From: Halomicronema hongdechloris C2206
Lineage (GTDB): Bacteria; Cyanobacteriota; Cyanobacteriia; Phormidesmidales; Phormidesmidaceae
Assembly (NCBI RefSeq): GCF_002075285.3
Contig: NZ_CP021983.2
Span: 2,160,001-2,192,000, forward strand
Direction of reading: 5' to 3'
Length of the DNA: 32,000 nt
Part shown: one piece after another, positions 16,429 to 27,145 of the stretch
Layout: every line of letters starts with the position of its first letter
Position numbering within the stretch: the stretch's first letter is position 1
Program-made: the position numbers and the translations under genes
The notes under the pieces: model-generated
Told to the model about the DNA's origin: nothing
Database searches by the model: none
The model's input: only the letters and a program-made list of their open reading frames with translations

Positions 16429-17304
16429 GTGCTGACCGCCAATTTAGACAACCAAAGCCATTGGCTGCGAGGCTGTGAGGTGGCAGAGGCGGCAGCTCGC
16501 TTCCTCCTAGAAGAATTTTCTGTGCCAAAGGTGGTGCTGTTTGGGTCTCTGCTGCACCCTAGCATCGTGCGTCAGCACTCCGATATTGATTTGGCCGTGT
16601 GGGGCCTCACTGATGAGCAGTATGATCGGGCCTTAGGGGCTCTGGCAGACCTAACCTCAGAGTTCTGCTTCGATTTGGTCCAAGGGGAGTCGGCTCAACC
16701 TAGCCTCAGCCAAGTGATTGAGCGGGATGGGATTGCCCTGGGATACTCCTCTGCTCCTGTGGTAACTCAACTCAGTAGGGCTTTGCCGTTAGAGCATCTG
16801 CCGATGAAGCGTACCTATGCAGTTTTACGGGGACAACTCGAGCAAGAATTACAGGAACTCGAGGGTCTAGTGCAGAAGACTGAAGCCCTGTTGGCTAAGT
16901 TGCGGGCCACCCAGGATGAAGATTATTTGGGCACAGTTGCGCTAAACCTACACAGTTTCTACTCGGGGGTGGAGCGCATTTTCAAGCAAATCGCGCAGAC
17001 CATCGATGGCGTTGTCCCGGATACGGCCAACTGGCACCGGCAGCTACTGCGGCAGATGGCAGCCCCCGTCTGGCATATCCGTCCTGCGGTGTTGAGAGCT
17101 GACACAGTCACCTGGCTGGAAGATTACTGTTCTTTTCGGCACTTGGTCAGAAATATCTACAGCACTCATCTCAAAGTAGACCGGGTGGAGGCTCTGGCAG
17201 AACGGCTGCCCACCTGTATGGCTTTCCTCAGGGAAGACTTAGAGCATATGATGATTGCCCTGGAGTCCCAACCCCCTTGGGAGTCGAATGGGGAGGAGAC
17301 GTAA
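16429..17304 (+). CDS. Fused nucleotidyltransferase (MNT) + HEPN-like domain protein (module 1)
   Basis: The N-terminal half has NTase motifs (LFGSLLHP...HSDIDLAV). The C-terminal half is paralogous to the two downstream HEPN-like proteins (LHSFYSGVERIF, WHRQLLRQM, FRHLVRNIYSTH). There is no stop between the halves. GTG 16429 directly follows an in-frame TAG. An internal Met lies at 16804. Confidence 0.8.
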   Translation: MLTANLDNQSHWLRGCEVAEAAARFLLEEFSVPKVVLFGSLLHPSIVRQHSDIDLAVWGLTDEQYDRALGALADLTSEFCFDLVQGESAQPSLSQVIERDGIALGYSSAPVVTQLSRALPLEHLPMKRTYAVLRGQLEQELQELEGLVQKTEALLAKLRATQDEDYLGTVALNLHSFYSGVERIFKQIAQTIDGVVPDTANWHRQLLRQMAAPVWHIRPAVLRADTVTWLEDYCSFRHLVRNIYSTHLKVDRVEALAERLPTCMAFLREDLEHMMIALESQPPWESNGEET

Positions 17305-17311
17305 TTCAGGA

Positions 17312-17680
17312 ATGACTGGCCAGTCCTTCGATACGTCTTTACTCGACCGATTGCTCGTGGAGACATGCGATCGCAACGAGGCCGCCCGGCAGCAGGTCCT
17401 TGCCGATGCGATCGCATGGCTGGACGCCCACGCCGCCGGCTTCGGCCTCACCCGCGCCTATCTCTTCGGCTCCCTGATTCGTCCCTATCGATTTTCTCCC
17501 CACTCCGATGTGGACATTGCCGTTGACGCCATCGGAGTTGACGACTTCTTCACCCTCATGGCCGGCCTCTCAGAAGCCCTGGGGCGAGAGGTAGACTTAG
17601 TGGAACTGCCCAAATGCCACTTCGCCGACCGCATCCGCCAACAAGGTCAGCTATGGACCCACCCAGATATGCACTCTTAA
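17312..17680 (+). CDS. Nucleotidyltransferase domain protein (MNT-type, module 2)
   Basis: NTase motifs LFGSLIRP...HSDVDIAV are present. ATG 17312 lies 8 nt after the previous stop. Confidence 0.8.
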   Translation: MTGQSFDTSLLDRLLVETCDRNEAARQQVLADAIAWLDAHAAGFGLTRAYLFGSLIRPYRFSPHSDVDIAVDAIGVDDFFTLMAGLSEALGREVDLVELPKCHFADRIRQQGQLWTHPDMHS

Positions 17681-18129
17681 CCACAGACATTGCGGCCCAG
17701 CAAACCATCATCCATCGCATTTACACCCTGCTGAGGCAACGGGCGGAGGGGCTAACGATCGAGAATCCTGAAAAACTAGAGAGTGTGGCCTATCAGCTCC
17801 ATAACCTCTACGGGGCCATCGAAGAGCTGTTTAAGGTCATCGCCACCTATTTCGAGAACCAGATTACCGATGCCGGGCAGCGGCATAGTCGTCTGCTGCA
17901 GCGCATGAGCCAGCCCGTCCCTGGCGTTCGCCCCGCCATAATCTCAGAGGAGAGCTATCTGCTGCTCAATAGCTTGCGGGCGTTTCGCCACTGCTTTCGC
18001 CATGCCTACGGCGTTCCGATTGACCATAACCAGCTCCTGAGCAACCTTGAGAAAGCCTATGCCCTAGACGCTAAGCTATCAACAGATATCCAAATATTTT
18101 TGAGCACGCTAGAACGCTCCCATGAGTGA
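17653..18129 (+). CDS. HEPN-like partner protein (module 2)
   Basis: Blocks LHNLYGAIEELF, RHSRLLQRM and FRHCFRHAYG are present. ATG 17653 overlaps the MNT gene by 28 nt. Confidence 0.7.
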   Translation: MDPPRYALLTTDIAAQQTIIHRIYTLLRQRAEGLTIENPEKLESVAYQLHNLYGAIEELFKVIATYFENQITDAGQRHSRLLQRMSQPVPGVRPAIISEESYLLLNSLRAFRHCFRHAYGVPIDHNQLLSNLEKAYALDAKLSTDIQIFLSTLERSHE

Positions 18130-18502
18130 GCCCCCTGAGCCGGTTATTGATCCCGCCCATCTGGCCTATTGGCAACGGGCCATGGCCCGGCAGGCACAGA
18201 CTCGTCAGCAGGCGCAAGCGGCTGCCTGGGAAGCCGTGCAGCAGATGGCCGCCTGCCTGCGCCAGGAATTTGGGGCCACCCGGGTAATTGCCTTCGGCTC
18301 CCTAGTGCGCCATCGCTTCACCGACGACTCCGACATTGACCTGGCGGCTGCAGACATCCCCGCCGAGCGCTACTTCGAGGCCGTGGCCCGGGTGAATGAA
18401 TTTAGCCCCCGTTGGGTGGATCTCAAACCCTTAGAAGCGCTGGAGCCTCATTTTCGCCGGCGGGTCCTGTCCACAGGCATTGATATCGATGCGAGAGATT
18501 AG
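18122..18502 (+). CDS. Nucleotidyltransferase domain protein (MNT-type, module 3)
   Basis: NTase motifs AFGSLVRH...DSDIDLAA are present. ATG 18122 overlaps the previous stop (ATGAGTGA). Confidence 0.8.
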   Translation: MSEPPEPVIDPAHLAYWQRAMARQAQTRQQAQAAAWEAVQQMAACLRQEFGATRVIAFGSLVRHRFTDDSDIDLAAADIPAERYFEAVARVNEFSPRWVDLKPLEALEPHFRRRVLSTGIDIDARD

Positions 18503-18998
18503 CCCGGCTGCTATCCGAGACCTGGCCCTCGACATCGAAACCGAGTTGGCTAAATTAGCTCGCCTAGAGCAGGCGATTGCAGCGGTGCAAGCAGAAATCG
18601 CAGCCGATCCAGAGCGGGCATCACTGTTCTATGAGAATTTGGCTCTGAAGCTCCATAACTTTTACACCGGCTGCGAGAAAATCTTGTGCCTCGTAGCGGT
18701 GGAGCTCAATGGCGGCGTGCCGTCGGGGGCTGATTGGCATAAACGCTTATTAGAGCGCATGGGGCAGGCTCGAGAGGGGCGAGCGGCAGTACTAGAGGCC
18801 GAAACCACCCGTCAATTGCAGGAGTTTTTGGGATTTCGGCACATCGTACGCAATCTATATGGGTTCGAGCTCGATACCCAGCGGGTAGCGGCCCTGGTGG
18901 CCAACTATCCTGCTGTCTGGGCCGCCGTGCGCCGTGATGTGCAGAGGTTTGTGCAGTGGTTGCGATCGCTGGCAGACCACCTGGCTAAACTGGAGTAA
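18489..18998 (+). CDS. HEPN-like partner protein (module 3)
   Basis: Blocks LHNFYTGCEKIL, WHKRLLERM and FRHIVRNLYG are present. The start is ATG 18489 or TTG 18480, and either overlaps the MNT gene. Confidence 0.7.
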   Translation: MREISPAAIRDLALDIETELAKLARLEQAIAAVQAEIAADPERASLFYENLALKLHNFYTGCEKILCLVAVELNGGVPSGADWHKRLLERMGQAREGRAAVLEAETTRQLQEFLGFRHIVRNLYGFELDTQRVAALVANYPAVWAAVRRDVQRFVQWLRSLADHLAKLE

Positions 18999-23008: not shown

Positions 23009-23335
23009 CTACAGATGTTCCTTATGCCCGTGCAGGCTGCGCCTATGACTCCGCTCAAGGAACGTCGGCTGAGCGAAGTCGTTCACGAAGTGTCTCCCAG
23101 CGGGAGAAAGCTGACTTGTATGTGTAGCGAGGGCTTCTTCTCCGGTCTCGTCTGTCGCAATTGCCCGTTGCTCCTCTGCAGCCTCTCTGGCCCGCTCTTG
23201 TTGCTGTCGCTGGAACCAAAACCCCAGCAGCGCCAAGACTACGGGGACCCCTAACAAACTCAACCAATCCCAGATGGTTTTCGCTGGCTGGGGGGGTGAC
23301 CGTCTCAACGGTCTTCGTGATCTAGCCTTCGGCAT
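23009..23335 (-). CDS. Hypothetical protein; looks like the N-terminal TM + coiled region of a cyanobacterial pentapeptide-repeat-type protein without the repeat domain (probable remnant)
   Basis: AKTIWDWLSLLGVPVVLALLGFWFQRQQQERAREAAEEQRAIATDETGEEAL resembles the common N-terminal module of such proteins. No pentapeptide repeats follow. Confidence 0.35.
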   Translation of the reverse strand: MPKARSRRPLRRSPPQPAKTIWDWLSLLGVPVVLALLGFWFQRQQQERAREAAEEQRAIATDETGEEALATHTSQLSPAGRHFVNDFAQPTFLERSHRRSLHGHKEHL

Positions 23336-23531
23336 CTCTTTCGGTGGTGGTAGAGGTAATCTCACGTTCGCCGATGCCCCACTTGGGCCAGCCGTTGAGA
23401 TAGATGCCTCCAATAGCCAAACTGGAGAGAATCACCACCAGTGCGATCGCAACTGCGATAGCGATGCGCCAGCCCCCTATTGGCTTAGGGCGTTTCTCCA
23501 GGGTTAATACCCGTTTCCAGCTCGACGGCAT
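23322..23531 (-). CDS. Small hypothetical membrane protein (69 aa), possibly the 5' part of a disrupted gene continuing into 23009-23335
   Basis: There is one TM segment (WRIAIAVAIALVVILSSLAIGGIYL). The ORF ends at TAG 23322-23324. Downstream coding continues in another frame across a C7 run. Confidence 0.3.
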   Translation of the reverse strand: MPSSWKRVLTLEKRPKPIGGWRIAIAVAIALVVILSSLAIGGIYLNGWPKWGIGEREITSTTTERDAEG

Positions 23532-23551: not shown

Positions 23552-23934
23552 GGCACTAGTTTAGTGGGATGAGCGAGCTGGGGCATGAGTTAACCCATCG
23601 AAAACAGAGGAGACTAACGAGAGGGCCGCAGCACTCTATGCAGCCAGCGGCTAACTCGGCGTTGTTTGCTTTGAGCCTGCTTTCAGTGGTTCTATTACAA
23701 CATCTCAAACAGTTTACGTGGTGACTACTTGCGAGCCTTCAGCGACTACATGAAGCAAATAATCCCCATCTTCCCGCCTCCGACGCCGACAAAGCCGCCA
23801 TCACCGCCCTCGTGCAAAAGTGCCTGGGCGCCAGAGACCAAGGTGTGGCCCGGTGGGAAGCAGAGATCGATGACCGCATTGCCTACCTCTACGGCCTCGC
23901 CCCAGACGACCTCAAAATCATCCATGGTGATTAG
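23552..23934 (+). pseudogene. Repeat R1a: decayed 3' end of a restriction-modification (type IIG/Eco57I- or PglX-like) gene
   Basis: The last ~50 codons read ...PASDADKAAITALVQKCLGARDQGVARWEAEIDDRIAYLYGLAPDDLKIIHGD*. Upstream, FYYNISNSLRGDYLRAFSDYMKQIIPI lies in another frame. There is no start codon. It is near-identical to 24655-25038. Confidence 0.6.
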
Positions 23935-23936
23935 CG

Positions 23937-24248
23937 ATGCGGGTGCTTAGCGATCATCAAAATCGTGCTATTCGTCTGACTGACGAACGCCTAGCCCATA
24001 TCCTGGATCATTCAGAAATGGATGGGTTGGAACCGCAGATTGAAATTGTCCTCCAACAGCCCGAAACCGTATGCCAGTCCAATACCGATCTCCAAGTTCA
24101 GCTTTACTACCGCTACTATGAACAAACTGCTGTAGGTGCTAAATGGCTGTGCGTGGTGGTCAAGCACTTGGCTGATGATGCCTTTATCATCACCGCTTAT
24201 CTCACCGACAGAATCAAACAAGGAGTCGTCCTATGGCCCAACCCGTAA
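23937..24248 (+). CDS. Putative toxin-like small protein (DUF4258-like; cargo 1)
   Basis: A 103-aa ORF with IRLTDERLAHILDH...LYYRYY...KWLCVVVKHLADDAFIITAYLTDRIKQG. It begins 2 nt after the R1a stop and overlaps its partner by 16 nt. The family call is from memory. Confidence 0.6.
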   Translation: MRVLSDHQNRAIRLTDERLAHILDHSEMDGLEPQIEIVLQQPETVCQSNTDLQVQLYYRYYEQTAVGAKWLCVVVKHLADDAFIITAYLTDRIKQGVVLWPNP

Positions 24249-24442
24249 AAGTTTGGTTTGATCCAGAAGCAGACTTTTTAGAAGTCACCTTTTCCGATGC
24301 TCCCGGCTACATGCGCGAAACCGATAACGACGCGGTGATGGAGCGAGTTGATACAGAAGGGAATGTGATTGGATTCTCGATTTTGCAAGTGAGCGCCCTG
24401 GCGAAGGATAAACCCCTGCTGGCTCAGCTTGTCGGTACATAA
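24233..24442 (+). CDS. DUF2283 domain-containing protein (putative antitoxin; cargo 1)
   Basis: The pattern VWFDPEADFLEVTFSD...VDTEGNVIGFSILQVS is characteristic of DUF2283. Confidence 0.7.
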   Translation: MAQPVKVWFDPEADFLEVTFSDAPGYMRETDNDAVMERVDTEGNVIGFSILQVSALAKDKPLLAQLVGT

Positions 24443-24508
24443 TCGCTTCCTGTATCAAGAATCCCGTCACCTGGCTCATGCAACAACTCCAACAGGAAAC
24501 CTGAAACC

Positions 24509-24694
24509 ATGAAGCAAACTGAGATCCGCAAAACTGGCTATCAAGCGTTGATCAACGCCCTTGGTGTGGTCGGGATGTTGCGCTTCTTGCAGCAGCTAGA
24601 CATTGGCAGTGGCGATTACACTCTAGAACGTCAGCAGACTCCAGAACCGACCTTGGGCACTAGTTTAGTGGGGATAAATGCACGGGAGGCATGA
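24509..24694 (+). CDS. Small ORF (R2a copy), 3' end replaced at the R2a/R1b junction
   Basis: MKQTEIRKTGYQALINALGVVGMLRFLQQLDIGSGDYTLERQQ is identical to the 25643 copy. The copies diverge at residues 44-46 (TPE versus IPD), share PTL at 47-49, and lose all similarity from residue 50, where R1b begins. Confidence 0.5.
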   Translation: MKQTEIRKTGYQALINALGVVGMLRFLQQLDIGSGDYTLERQQTPEPTLGTSLVGINAREA

Positions 24695-25038
24695 GTCAAC
24701 CAATCAAAGACCATGGGACACTAACGAGAAGACCGCGGCACTCTATGCAGCCAGCGGCTAACTCGGCGTTGTTTGCTTTGAGCCTGCTTTCAGTAGTTCT
24801 ATTACAACATCTCAAACAGTTTACGTGGTGACTACTTGCGAGCCTTCAGCGACTACATGAAGCAAATCCCCATCCCCCCGCCTCCGACGCCGACAAAGCC
24901 GCCATCACCGCCCTCGTGCAAAAGTGCCTGGACGCCAGAGGCCAAGGCGTGGCCCGGTGGGAAGCCGAGATCGATGACCGGGTGGCTCACCTCTACGGCC
25001 TCGCCCTCACCGACCTCAAAATCATCCACGGCGAGTAG
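24655..25038 (+). pseudogene. Repeat R1b: second copy of the decayed restriction-modification 3' end
   Basis: The tail reads ...PASDADKAAITALVQKCLDARGQGVARWEAEIDDRVAHLYGLALTDLKIIHGE*. It shares the frame break with R1a at the IPI/PASD junction (poly-C). It also has TAG (24794-24796) where R1a has TGG. Confidence 0.6.
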
Positions 25039-25040
25039 TC

Positions 25041-25292
25041 ATGAGTAAACGCCAAAAGCTTTTGCAGCAGGTACTCAACAACCCGAAAAATGTTAGCTTC
25101 AAAGACATGATGCGGTTGATCGAAGCCTTTGGGTTCACCCTAGCGCGAGTTAATGGCAGCCATCACATCTTTACCCATCCCAATGTCCCTGAATTAGTCA
25201 ACATTCAAAATCACAAAGGCAAGGCAAAACCCTATCAAATTCGACAATTTTTGAGCTTGGTCGAACAGCATGATTTAACTCTGGAGGATTAA
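25041..25292 (+). CDS. hicA: Type II toxin-antitoxin system HicA family toxin (cargo 2)
   Basis: An 83-aa ORF with FKDMMRLIEAFGFTLARVNGSHHIFTHP, the HicA/YcfA motif. It starts 2 nt after the R1b stop. Confidence 0.8.
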   Translation: MSKRQKLLQQVLNNPKNVSFKDMMRLIEAFGFTLARVNGSHHIFTHPNVPELVNIQNHKGKAKPYQIRQFLSLVEQHDLTLED

Positions 25293-25294
25293 GC

Positions 25295-25519
25295 ATGAAA
25301 GACTATCACATCAACATCTTTTACAGCGAAGATGACGCAGGCTACATTGCCGATATTCCTGATTTGCACCACTGCTCTGCGTTCGGTGACACTCCCGCCG
25401 CAGCGTTGCAAGAATTAGAAATTGCCAAAGCCGCCTGGTTAGAAGCTGCCCAAGAACTGGGTAAGCCCATACCGCCGCCAACTTATCGTCCAGTGATTTA
25501 TCAGGCTCGTACAGCATAA
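25295..25519 (+). CDS. hicB: Type II toxin-antitoxin system HicB family antitoxin (cargo 2)
   Basis: A 74-aa ORF with YHINIFYSEDDAGYIADIPDLHHCSAFGDTPAAALQELEIAKAAWLEAAQELGKPIPPP, a HicB N-terminal domain pattern. It starts 2 nt after hicA. Confidence 0.8.
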   Translation: MKDYHINIFYSEDDAGYIADIPDLHHCSAFGDTPAAALQELEIAKAAWLEAAQELGKPIPPPTYRPVIYQARTA

Positions 25520-25642
25520 CCGAATTTCTGATCGACGATCGCCTCCTCAAACAAGCCAAACGATCCCCTGATAGCGTTTTGATTCTGGTCGAAAATCCCG
25601 TCACCTGGCTGATGCAACAACTCCAACAGGAAACCTGAAACC

Positions 25643-25828
25643 ATGAAGCAAACTGAGATCCGCAAAACTGGCTATCAAGCTTTAATCAATGCCCTTGGTG
25701 TGGTCGGGATGTTGCGCTTCTTGCAGCAGCTAGATATTGGCAGTGGCGATTACACTCTAGAGCGTCAACAAATTCCAGATCCTACCCTCGAAGAATTTCA
25801 GGTATTTGTTCAACAGCAGTCTGATTGA
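25643..25828 (+). CDS. Small ORF (R2b copy, apparently full length), unknown function
   Basis: A 61-aa paralogue of 24509-24694. It is preceded, as that copy is, by the conserved tail ...NPVTWLMQQLQQET-TGA 4 nt upstream of the ATG. Confidence 0.55.
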   Translation: MKQTEIRKTGYQALINALGVVGMLRFLQQLDIGSGDYTLERQQIPDPTLEEFQVFVQQQSD

Positions 25829-25878
25829 CCACCTTTCTCCTTTGCCGCTCTGATGCCATAGGATAAAACGTAGCTTAA

Positions 25879-25959
25879 TGGGAAGCCGAAATTGATGAGC
25901 GGATAGCGCGCTTGTATGGGCTAACAGCAGAGGATATGAAAAAAAATCGGGGTGAGTAA
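25879..25959 (+). pseudogene. R1c: third, diverged restriction-modification C-terminal tail fragment
   Basis: It reads WEAEIDERIARLYGLTAEDMKKNRGE* directly after an in-frame TAA. The first ~25 nt are near-identical to R1a/R1b (TGGGAAGCCGAAATTGATGAGCGG), then it becomes A/T-rich and diverged. Confidence 0.45.
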
Positions 25960-26208: not shown

Positions 26209-26227
26209 AACCTGCGGAATGCAGGTT
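26209..26227 (-). terminator. Hairpin terminator downstream of the HxlR-type gene
   Basis: AACCTGC-ggaat-GCAGGTT forms the stem. On the minus strand it is followed by GCTTTTAATTTT. On the plus strand only TTTGT follows. Confidence 0.5.
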
Positions 26228-26308: not shown

Positions 26309-27037
26309 TCAGCCCTTCGTCATCTTGCCGGGTACCGTCGGGGCCAAACCTGACAGATGGCGACGTTCGCCGTGCAGGTAAAGCCAGGTGGGCACTTGCC
26401 GCACATAGTCATCGGCCCCTGCGAAGGCAATGGTCCCCTGCTTAAGGGCCTGGTCTAGGTCGTGGTATCCCAATATCACATGGGTAAAGACACCGAGATC
26501 GGCCACGATCAACACATCGACCTCAAAGCCAGGATCCTTGAGGCAGACATCGACCCGCCCTTGCTCCGCGACTATCCAGTAGCTGCGCTGCTTGCGTTTT
26601 CCCTCCGGTAAGCCATGCAGGTCAAACTGCAAGACGACCTTAGTGGGCGGCATGGCCGCCAGATTAAGGCCACGACGCATTGCCCACATCAATAACTGAT
26701 CATCCAGTTGATTTGGAGACAGACGATCGTGGGTCCAGTAGGTAGCCCAAACCCCCATTTGCTCAATCAGAGGGCGCAGGGCTTCTCCCGCTGGAGTCAG
26801 GGAATAACGGGAGCCTTGTCCGGTGACCTTTTGCTGACGGGTGATCACCCCAGCCGTCTCCAGTTCTTTCAGGCGTTTAATCAACAACGCCCGCGACATC
26901 AACGGTACCCCATAGCTGATTTCGTTGAAGTAGCAACTGCCAGACATTAATTCCCTGAGAATCAAGGGCGTCCACCGCTCACAGATGACCTCTGCGGCTC
27001 TGGCAATGGGGCAATACTGTCCATATCCCTTTCCCAT
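26309..27037 (-). CDS. HxlR-family winged-helix transcriptional regulator with C-terminal extension
   Basis: CPIARAAEVICERWTPLILRELMSGSCYFNEI...LIKRLKELETAGVI is the HxlR signature. I preferred the start at ATG 27037 (MGKGYGQYCPIA). The gene is divergent from the acyl-CoA dehydrogenase gene. Confidence 0.8.
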   Translation of the reverse strand: MGKGYGQYCPIARAAEVICERWTPLILRELMSGSCYFNEISYGVPLMSRALLIKRLKELETAGVITRQQKVTGQGSRYSLTPAGEALRPLIEQMGVWATYWTHDRLSPNQLDDQLLMWAMRRGLNLAAMPPTKVVLQFDLHGLPEGKRKQRSYWIVAEQGRVDVCLKDPGFEVDVLIVADLGVFTHVILGYHDLDQALKQGTIAFAGADDYVRQVPTWLYLHGERRHLSGLAPTVPGKMTKG

Positions 27038-27145
27038 GGCAATGATTGCAATCGGCAACAGCAGGTTCAGATTGTGATCTTGTATCACACCGATCCGAAG
27101 ACCAGAATGGGGCCATTACAAGAGTTCACTTTTCGAGGAGCCCCC

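Follow-up and report, generated by a model that had tools for sequence, protein, structure and literature searches.

A probable gene-turnover hotspot behind the conserved end of a type IIG restriction gene in Halomicronema hongdechloris C2206

We analysed a window of 32,000 nucleotides (nt) of the cyanobacterium Halomicronema hongdechloris C2206 (contig NZ_CP021983.2, positions 2,160,001 to 2,192,000). It contains a small island in which two families of direct repeats, R1 (about 385 nt) and R2 (about 198 nt), enclose two unrelated toxin–antitoxin (TA) pairs, called cargo 1 and cargo 2 below. The features of the island, with positions counted from the first letter of the window, are as follows; ORF stands for open reading frame.

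23552-23934, plus strand: R1a, pseudogenised 3' end of a type IIG gene, ending in TAG at 23932-23934 (tblastn, three-frame translation)
23631-23757, plus strand: near-identical R1 block (1 difference in 127 nt against 24738-24864)
23937-24248, plus strand: putative toxin of cargo 1, 103 aa, with a PBECR2/DUF4258-like RNase fold (weak Pfam match)
24233-24442, plus strand: putative antitoxin of cargo 1, 69 aa, DUF2283 (Pfam, E = 3.6e-9)
24454-24505, plus strand: PIN-like remnant a, the last 15 or so codons, ending in NPVTWLMQQLQQET and a stop (tblastn with full PIN-like proteins, alignment)
24509-24694, plus strand: R2a ORF, with codons 1-48 of the R2 family; the frame enters R1b at 24654 and has a new 13-aa end
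24655-25038, plus strand: R1b, second type IIG remnant, ending in TAG at 25036-25038
25041-25292, plus strand: toxin HicA of cargo 2, 83 aa (PF07927, E = 5.7e-13)
25295-25519, plus strand: HicB-like antitoxin of cargo 2, 74 aa (23.4 bits, slightly under the cut-off)
25522-25638, plus strand: PIN-like remnant b, the last 40 or so codons, ending in DDRLLKQAKRSPDSVLILVENPVTWLMQQLQQET and a stop (tblastn, E = 1e-7 to 3e-8; alignment with L116 and L117)
25643-25828, plus strand: R2b, intact 61-aa partner gene, XM38_020580 (100% match)
25852-25959, plus strand: stub, a third and older tail remnant with two in-frame stops, ending in WEAEIDERIARLYGLTAEDMKKNRGE and a stop, 24 nt past the R2b stop

R1a pairs with R1b, and R2a (24455-24652) pairs with R2b (25589-25786), the latter two being 93% identical across 198 nt. 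The length and identity of the repeats exclude a chance origin. The R1 copies differ at 43 positions and the R2 copies at 13. Identity along R1 is uneven: 77% with four indels at 23552-23630, 99% at 23631-23757 and 88% at 23758-23934. In both units, the start codon of the cargo operon lies 2 nt past the R1 stop (TAG-cg-ATG at 23932-23939 and TAG-tc-ATG at 25036-25043), and the unit is only about 1.1 kb long. At codon 48, R2a gives way to R1b (24653/24654). The original prediction for this DNA had described R1 and R2 in this order and at these places, a single difference in the R1 core with more divergence further on, the 2-nt gap in both units, and cargo pairs of unrelated families (DUF4258-like/DUF2283 and hicA/hicB); our analysis recovered each of these. 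The R1-like stub that it placed after R2b is genuine and slightly longer than claimed. It had also described the island as A/T-rich, which holds for the cargo and the stub (GC content 0.45-0.50, against 0.55-0.60 in the flanking DNA) but not for R1 itself.

When two reading frames are combined, R1 translates into the C-terminus of a type IIG restriction/methyltransferase. R1a, which has a frameshift and upstream stops, retains part of a TaqI_C-like region as well as the conserved C-terminal tail. Against the C-terminus of the enzyme at L025 (loci from our database scans carry L numbers), R1 gave E = 1e-24 in tblastn. With the full-length enzymes of L001, L025 and L031 as queries, the only tblastn matches in the window were the three tail copies. 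No other part of the enzyme, no helicase and no intact methyltransferase and nuclease frame was found there. The database relatives of the conceptual R1 peptide are all short fragments (50-145 aa), some of them with TaqI_C (PF12950), and neither the conceptual R1 tail nor R2 matched any Pfam or NCBIfam model. Alignment with L025 and L026 showed that R1a and R1b carry the same 1-nt deletion and the same deletion of about 60 nt. Because intact genes lack these common lesions, R1 is a pseudogene remnant. The block at 23631-23757 is just 35-37% identical to L025 and L026 and therefore lies within the variable specificity region; it is probably a gene-conversion tract or the youngest segment common to the two copies. 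A promoter scan found nothing promoter-like within R1. We conclude that R1 and R2 are the wreckage of genes and pseudogenes and not recombination sites. Many short “hypothetical” cyanobacterial ORFs of 55-65 aa can be explained in the same way, as tails of type IIG genes.

The two genes of cargo 1 are adjacent and overlap. The putative toxin matched PBECR2 and DUF4258 at 18.6 and 13.2 bits, both under the cut-off, and its partner matched DUF2283 at 37.1 bits (cut-off 23). Homologues of this toxin stand right behind tails in L052, L058 and L075; identity to those of L052 and L075 is 50-52%, and that of the DUF2283 protein to its counterparts in the same two loci is 55-59%. Relatives behind other tails matched DUF4258 at 1.7e-7 (two proteins in the set of downstream ORFs). 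The literature that we searched contained no description of a DUF4258/DUF2283 pair. In cargo 2, the HicA match reached 49.2 bits and the HicB_lk match 23.4 bits (cut-off 27 in both cases). HicA is 73% and HicB 77% identical to the counterparts in L118, where hicAB likewise stands behind a tail. Judged by sequence, cargo 2 is a predicted HicAB type II TA system. The TA pairs of the window are presumably still active.

R2 combines the end of a PIN-like toxin gene (15-40 codons) with the 61-aa partner gene. The R2b family has 61 members, which are cyanobacterial proteins of 61-71 aa without a Pfam domain. They are usually encoded right after, or overlapping, a gene of 154-160 aa with a marginal PIN match (22.9-26.0 bits for the full-length PIN-like relatives, cut-off 23.6). 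The overlap with the end of the PIN-like gene is 14-20 nt in L013-L024. In such a pair, the PIN-like protein would be the toxin and R2 the antitoxin. At 13 of 56 informative loci, an intact R2 is preceded by a 3' PIN remnant only. The PIN-like gene is cut at about codon 102 in L118 and L120, at about codon 118 in window unit b, where the remnant begins 2 nt past the hicB stop, and at about codons 121-136 in unit a. An AlphaFold2 model of R2b has two helices (predicted local distance difference test, pLDDT, 73) and is too simple for a fold search; an R2 profile found no relatives among solved structures.

Several observations concern the PIN-like gene and R2 in their own right. Together they form an uncharacterised, toxin-first two-gene family (PIN-like, 154-160 aa; R2, 61-71 aa) at L013-L024 and L114-L176. 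The truncation points of the PIN-like gene gather around codons 95-121, where signals needed for the expression of R2 may lie. HIP1 is a highly iterated palindrome of cyanobacteria. The homology of the PIN remnants resumes at a near-HIP1 sequence, CGATCGC, in DDRLL codons (24443-24452, 25537-25546, and the equivalents in L116-L123). A role of this sequence in the joins is speculation.

A scan of reference genomes with an alignment of tails gave 80 loci, mostly cyanobacterial, with some in Armatimonadota, Rubrobacteraceae, Pirellulales and Verrucomicrobiota. The tail is the last 45 or so codons of the enzyme, is highly conserved across cyanobacteria, and mostly closes an open frame of 1,000-1,240 aa (the intact enzyme has about 1,100 aa). 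The full-length relatives matched REase_MTase_IIG in PADLOC (4e-133) and Eco57I, TaqI_C and MmeI_Mtase in Pfam. A phospholipase D–SNF2 (PLD-SNF2, HKD+SNF2) helicase of about 1,100 aa, which belongs to a cluster of 51 proteins, is encoded 0-3 genes downstream, or upstream in some variants. At 19 of the 25 closest loci, the next gene starts no more than 15 nt past the tail stop; its product ranges from 141 to 1,089 aa. Identified genes in this slot encode PDC-S39, DUF3644, a HEPN protein, a cyclase with a membrane protein, and a SMODS and SLATT pair. Among 150 small ORFs behind tails, the Pfam tally was led by TA families (PIN 8, DUF2283 3, DUF2281 3, HicA 2, HicB 2 and DUF4258 2, plus CopG and BrnA antitoxins). 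For example, the enzyme of L052 is followed after 14 nt by a DUF4258-like/DUF2283 pair, two further genes and the helicase, and the tail of L083 is followed after 32 nt by hicAB and at least five further TA pairs. Both the domain before the tail and the genes after it vary between genomes, and the enzyme is pseudogenised or split at many loci. Extra tail copies surround the cargo at L001-L006, L058, L065, L075, L109-L113 and L118, as would be expected if cargo brought along parts of a donor tail, or if the tail copies underwent recombination among themselves.

Other observations were made at these loci. In L001-L012, L047, L109-L113 and L117, an intact enzyme is followed by a stand-alone tail ORF of 57-63 aa that is open and highly conserved (for example, 5001-5192 in L001 and 5350-5535 in L117); this ORF may be a scar of recombination or may encode a functional small protein. 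The type IIG gene of L105-L108 is split by an IS66-family transposase, leaving a C-terminal fragment of 135 aa (4379-5869 in L105), so that a second, ordinary route to stand-alone tail fragments exists. The pair of type IIG enzyme and PLD-SNF2 helicase recurs across L025-L104 (for example, 6785-15219 in L031), in cyanobacteria and other phyla, with variable genes between and behind the two. We found no named system matching this pair in the literature searched, and it is apparently uncharacterised. The slot right behind the enzyme stop gathers defence genes, including PDC-S39, CBASS-like and Pycsar-like genes and TA pairs.

No R2 gene was found near the tail at any of the 80 reference-genome loci. 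The general element is therefore the tail with variable cargo, and not the pair of R1 and R2. We then took R2 as the query, and a scan of metagenomes with an R2 alignment gave 61 loci. The five loci closest to the R2 of the window all carry tails. The orders seen at the R2 loci were the following.

L116, L117: stand-alone tail ORF, intact PIN-like gene (4-nt overlap), R2
L133: enzyme of full length, with the PIN-like gene and R2 behind it
L120, L123: a piece of the tail, then VapB/VapC, an orphan DUF2283, the PIN remnant (from about codon 102 on) and R2
L118: SNF2 helicase fragment fused to a PIN remnant, R2, tail, hicAB, partial second tail

The segment of PIN remnant and R2 is 91-93% identical among the five closest loci (99% between L120 and L123), and these loci are one related cluster with three allele structures. 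The orphan DUF2283 of L120 is 73% identical to the toxin-paired DUF2283 of L058. The DNA alignment between L118 and the window begins about 20 nt inside the tail, so the junction of tail and hicA is old and common to both. The arrangements suggest a series: tail, PIN-like gene and R2; then tail, a new TA pair, PIN remnant and R2, as in both window units; then tail, VapBC, orphan DUF2283, PIN remnant and R2, as in L120. The original prediction had proposed tabulating what lies between R1 and R2 elsewhere. From the R2 side the outcome was positive (an empty frame, VapBC with DUF2283, and R2 followed by tail and hicAB), but from the tail side R2 was absent throughout.

The repeat copies also differ from each other in an uneven way. 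In the cargo-proximal 104 nt of the tail, R1a and R1b are 84.6% identical, and R1b is 85.6% identical to unrelated metagenome tails; over the 31 nt directly upstream, R1a and R1b are the same. This mosaic fits homologous recombination or gene conversion. R2a and R2b have 11 differences in 48 codons, nine synonymous and two not (counted by hand). At L006, an enzyme tail and a stand-alone tail lie in tandem, 69 nt apart, and show eight synonymous and no nonsynonymous changes. Because the differences in the R2 copies and in the L006 tails are mostly synonymous, these copies diverged as working genes. Such patterns fit once-functional, diverged alleles that were joined and later received conversion tracts, and not a recent duplication followed by decay. 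In 59 full-length genes, the proportion of synonymous differences in the tail (pS) was 0.80 and that of nonsynonymous differences (pN) 0.21. Synonymous sites are saturated, so the tail is conserved at the level of the protein and not as a DNA site. A tail that is a conserved DNA site or that spread recently is ruled out by the same saturation.

We then searched for recombination machinery. Pfam scans of 26 ORFs in the window found no integrase, invertase or transposase, as the original prediction had noted for integrases and transposases. No attC-like element was found at the cargo ends, which lack an inverted repeat and leave only 0-17 nt between the cargo stop and the PIN remnant, too little to accommodate one. 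The R1 and R2 copies are direct and not inverted. There is no tRNA gene in the window and no Rfam match at 22-27 kb, so the island is neither tRNA-targeted nor a known RNA element. The left ends of tail fragments are scattered over positions 21-111 of the hidden Markov model (HMM). A fixed left end was sought and is absent; a loose cluster at HMM positions 76-89 coincides with the onset of conservation and is possibly a detection artefact. A hidden third unit left of R1a and cargo remnants past the stub were also sought by local alignment, which scored no higher than shuffled sequences did (z = 0.2 to 2.3).

Around the island, two further features lie on the right.

26209-26227, no strand assigned: terminator-like hairpin, readable on both strands (consensus match only)
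26309-27088, minus strand: HxlR-type regulator gene (Pfam), with the hairpin between it and the island

The hairpin is probably the right-hand limit of the island. Directly left of R1a, minus-strand ORFs of 134 and 69 aa lie at 23009-23531, and the 134-aa ORF has weak family matches only. About 5 kb from the island, at 16429-18998, lie three adjacent genes with HepT-like_2 (HEPN-type toxin) domains; in the first, this domain is fused with a Polbeta nucleotidyltransferase domain. This tandem set is the second TA-like set in the window.

The explanation that we favour, and consider fairly probable, is that the island is the decayed end of a defence locus in which TA pairs were turned over by homologous recombination anchored in the tail, with illegitimate joins on the right and later gene conversion. 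What it builds on was observed directly: the identities of the parts, the recurrence of the frame with other cargo, the mosaic, the scattered ends and the missing recombinase. The route of recombination and the order of events are what we infer from these. The ancestor would have carried a type IIG restriction/methyltransferase gene, which in relatives is paired with a PLD-SNF2 helicase. In the nearest lineage, a toxin-first PIN-like/R2 pair would have come right after the enzyme stop. Incoming DNA from a similar locus would pair with the resident tail by RecA-type homologous recombination, and its far end would join illegitimately or in a second common segment, which could be another tail copy or the PIN remnant and R2. 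Each arrival would land directly behind the tail and overwrite the start of the module already there. The inferred toxin gene comes first in all three types of overwritten module, so the old toxin would be destroyed and the old antitoxin stranded, a replacement that should be harmless to the cell. In the window, this would have taken place with hicAB and with the DUF4258-like/DUF2283 pair. The two units would have come to lie in tandem either because tail copies recombined with each other, unequally or in the Campbell manner, or because a diverged allele integrated. Later, parts of R1 and R2 would have been homogenised by short tracts of gene conversion, and the enzyme body and the helicase would have been deleted.

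Some of our results weigh against this explanation. The recombination events are unobserved, and the route is read from end products. The tests of selection use few sites (the 11 R2 differences). The frameshift and the deletion of about 60 nt common to the R1 copies would fit a local duplication of a dead gene equally well, unless conversion spread the lesions. The cargo is tidily bounded: it starts 2 nt past the tail stop, its last stop codon lies 0-17 nt ahead of the PIN remnant, and the right-hand ends of independent alleles nearly coincide (some 15 nt apart in the window, and 2-3 nt between L118 and L120). Ends like these are not expected of random illegitimate joins, which hints at a two-sided homology exchange within an existing frame or at selection on the sequence before R2. 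In an extension that we think unlikely, the tail itself would be portable homology: circles of tail and cargo would be excised through recombination between direct tail copies and re-enter any genome that bears the tail. If true, this would be an integrase-free, RecA-dependent counterpart of the integron that assembles TA and defence arrays across phyla.

One alternative is that a dead unit of R1, cargo, PIN remnant and R2 was duplicated once in tandem, that one cargo was replaced, and that neutral decay followed, with nothing systematic behind it. The window holds just two full units and no extra unit left of R1a, the R1 copies have a common frameshift, a common deletion of about 60 nt and a 99% core, and the joint of R2a and R1b is shaped like a tandem-duplication junction. 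However, the frame with other cargo, and the order of R2, tail and hicAB, recur in an unrelated metagenome lineage. Along the unit, the copies are anywhere between 73% and 99% identical, and the divergence of the tail is at the level seen between genera. Nine synonymous to two nonsynonymous differences between R2a and R2b are also unexpected for a dead R2a (rough binomial p ≈ 0.004, on few sites). We regard this duplication as unlikely, and the original view that the array is not a plain tandem duplication is supported by the recurrent frame and the mosaic in R1. Pure erosion would start instead from two or three adjacent complete systems of type IIG enzyme and helicase, each with a TA pair, and let deletions spare the TA genes and their neighbours, so that no insertions are needed. 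Its rationale is the lethal loss of an antitoxin or of its expression signals. The helicase fragment of L118, fused straight to the PIN remnant, is indeed a large deletion, enzymes are pseudogenised or split at many loci, and published work on high-turnover spots describes TA loss through toxin pseudogenisation (PMC13617665). Two different enzymes would not, however, give R1 copies with identical lesions and a 99% block in a variable region, and the nesting of VapBC, orphan DUF2283, PIN remnant and R2 at L120 requires insertions that overwrite toxins. We regard erosion alone as quite improbable.

The original prediction had loosely likened the array to an integron or a shufflon, which would imply a dedicated cassette system with a recombinase encoded elsewhere in the genome. 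Small, packed, apparently promoterless TA units in tandem and cargo that ends tidily at start and stop codons would suit such a system. Against it stand the missing integrase, invertase and transposase among the 26 scanned ORFs of the window, the direct repeats, the cargo ends without inverted repeats and with only 0-17 nt before R2, the scattered left ends, and flanks that are conserved as protein and not as DNA. We consider it very improbable. What survives of the cassette idea is turnover by general recombination, for which the mosaic and the recurrent frame speak, whereas dedicated exchange sites do not, since R1 and R2 are remnants. A collapsed or chimeric repeat in the assembly is scarcely credible. 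Repeats of 200-400 nt can mislead short-read assemblers, but the R1 and R2 copies are distinguishable by their 43 and 13 differences, the record is a single contig of 5.58 Mb, and L118 shows the matching gene order independently.

The ways in which TA modules get into and out of chromosomes are still called unclear in a recent study (PMC13617665). For this turnover, the present locus and its relatives provide a specific route that can be tested. The conserved end of a gene would act as a landing strip, new modules would overwrite the old toxin and strand its antitoxin, and the accumulated copies of the landing strip would be scars that record the order of arrival.

Several known systems can be compared with the island. 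Chromosomal integrons have IntI, attI and attC, and their arrays are often rich in TA genes; attC lies at the 3' end of each cassette and forms an imperfect inverted repeat some 60-140 nt long. Like such arrays, the island has tandem, compact, mostly promoterless TA units with a repeat between them. However, it has neither attC nor, among the 26 scanned ORFs, IntI; its repeats are coding remnants of 200-385 nt with variable ends, and any exchange would rely on general recombination. Shufflons and phase-variable restriction loci use inverted repeats and a site-specific invertase, whereas the repeats here are direct and no invertase was found among the scanned ORFs. Accessory genes can also be embedded in restriction or BREX systems; the anticodon nuclease PrrC sits inside a type Ic restriction locus. 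Similarly, TA or defence genes stand inside or behind the restriction system in L052, L083 and L105, although the enzyme of the window is gone. The parent locus recalls DISARM (DrmMI methylase, DrmD SNF2 helicase and DrmC PLD nuclease), since the enzyme matched DrmMI at 9e-44 and the helicase matched DrmD and DrmC. However, the best matches are to type IIG and HKD+Snf2 models, and a single fused protein carries both PLD and SNF2. Neither DrmA nor DrmB was found among the scanned enzyme, slot gene and helicase of L031, L009 and L029, which was not an exhaustive search of these loci.

Homology-facilitated illegitimate recombination, known from naturally transformable bacteria, resembles the route proposed here. 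The tail would be its single homologous anchor, and the far end, variable and without homology, would have removed the resident DNA next to it. Donor-type sequence in the anchor beside the cargo, the mosaic in the tail and the truncation of the PIN-like gene at several different codons are consistent with this. The duplicated anchors and near-coincident right ends differ from it and suggest an additional role of double homologous exchange or of events of the Campbell type. Hotspots of defence islands and TA genes have conserved flanks and a fast turnover of cargo. The island resembles them in that variable TA or defence genes stand between conserved neighbours, cargo differs between close relatives, and the toxin is truncated while its partner is kept (13 of 56 R2 loci here). 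Belot et al. (2026, PMC13617665) describe a clustering of TA genes in spots of high turnover together with toxin pseudogenisation. The island differs from such hotspots in that the left flank is the end, about 45 codons long, of a single defence gene, flank copies travel and pile up around the cargo, in the window even the flanks are dead remnants, and a unit spans only about 1.1 kb. The island is a gene-turnover hotspot behind a type IIG tail, a variant of the known hotspots and not a new cassette machine.

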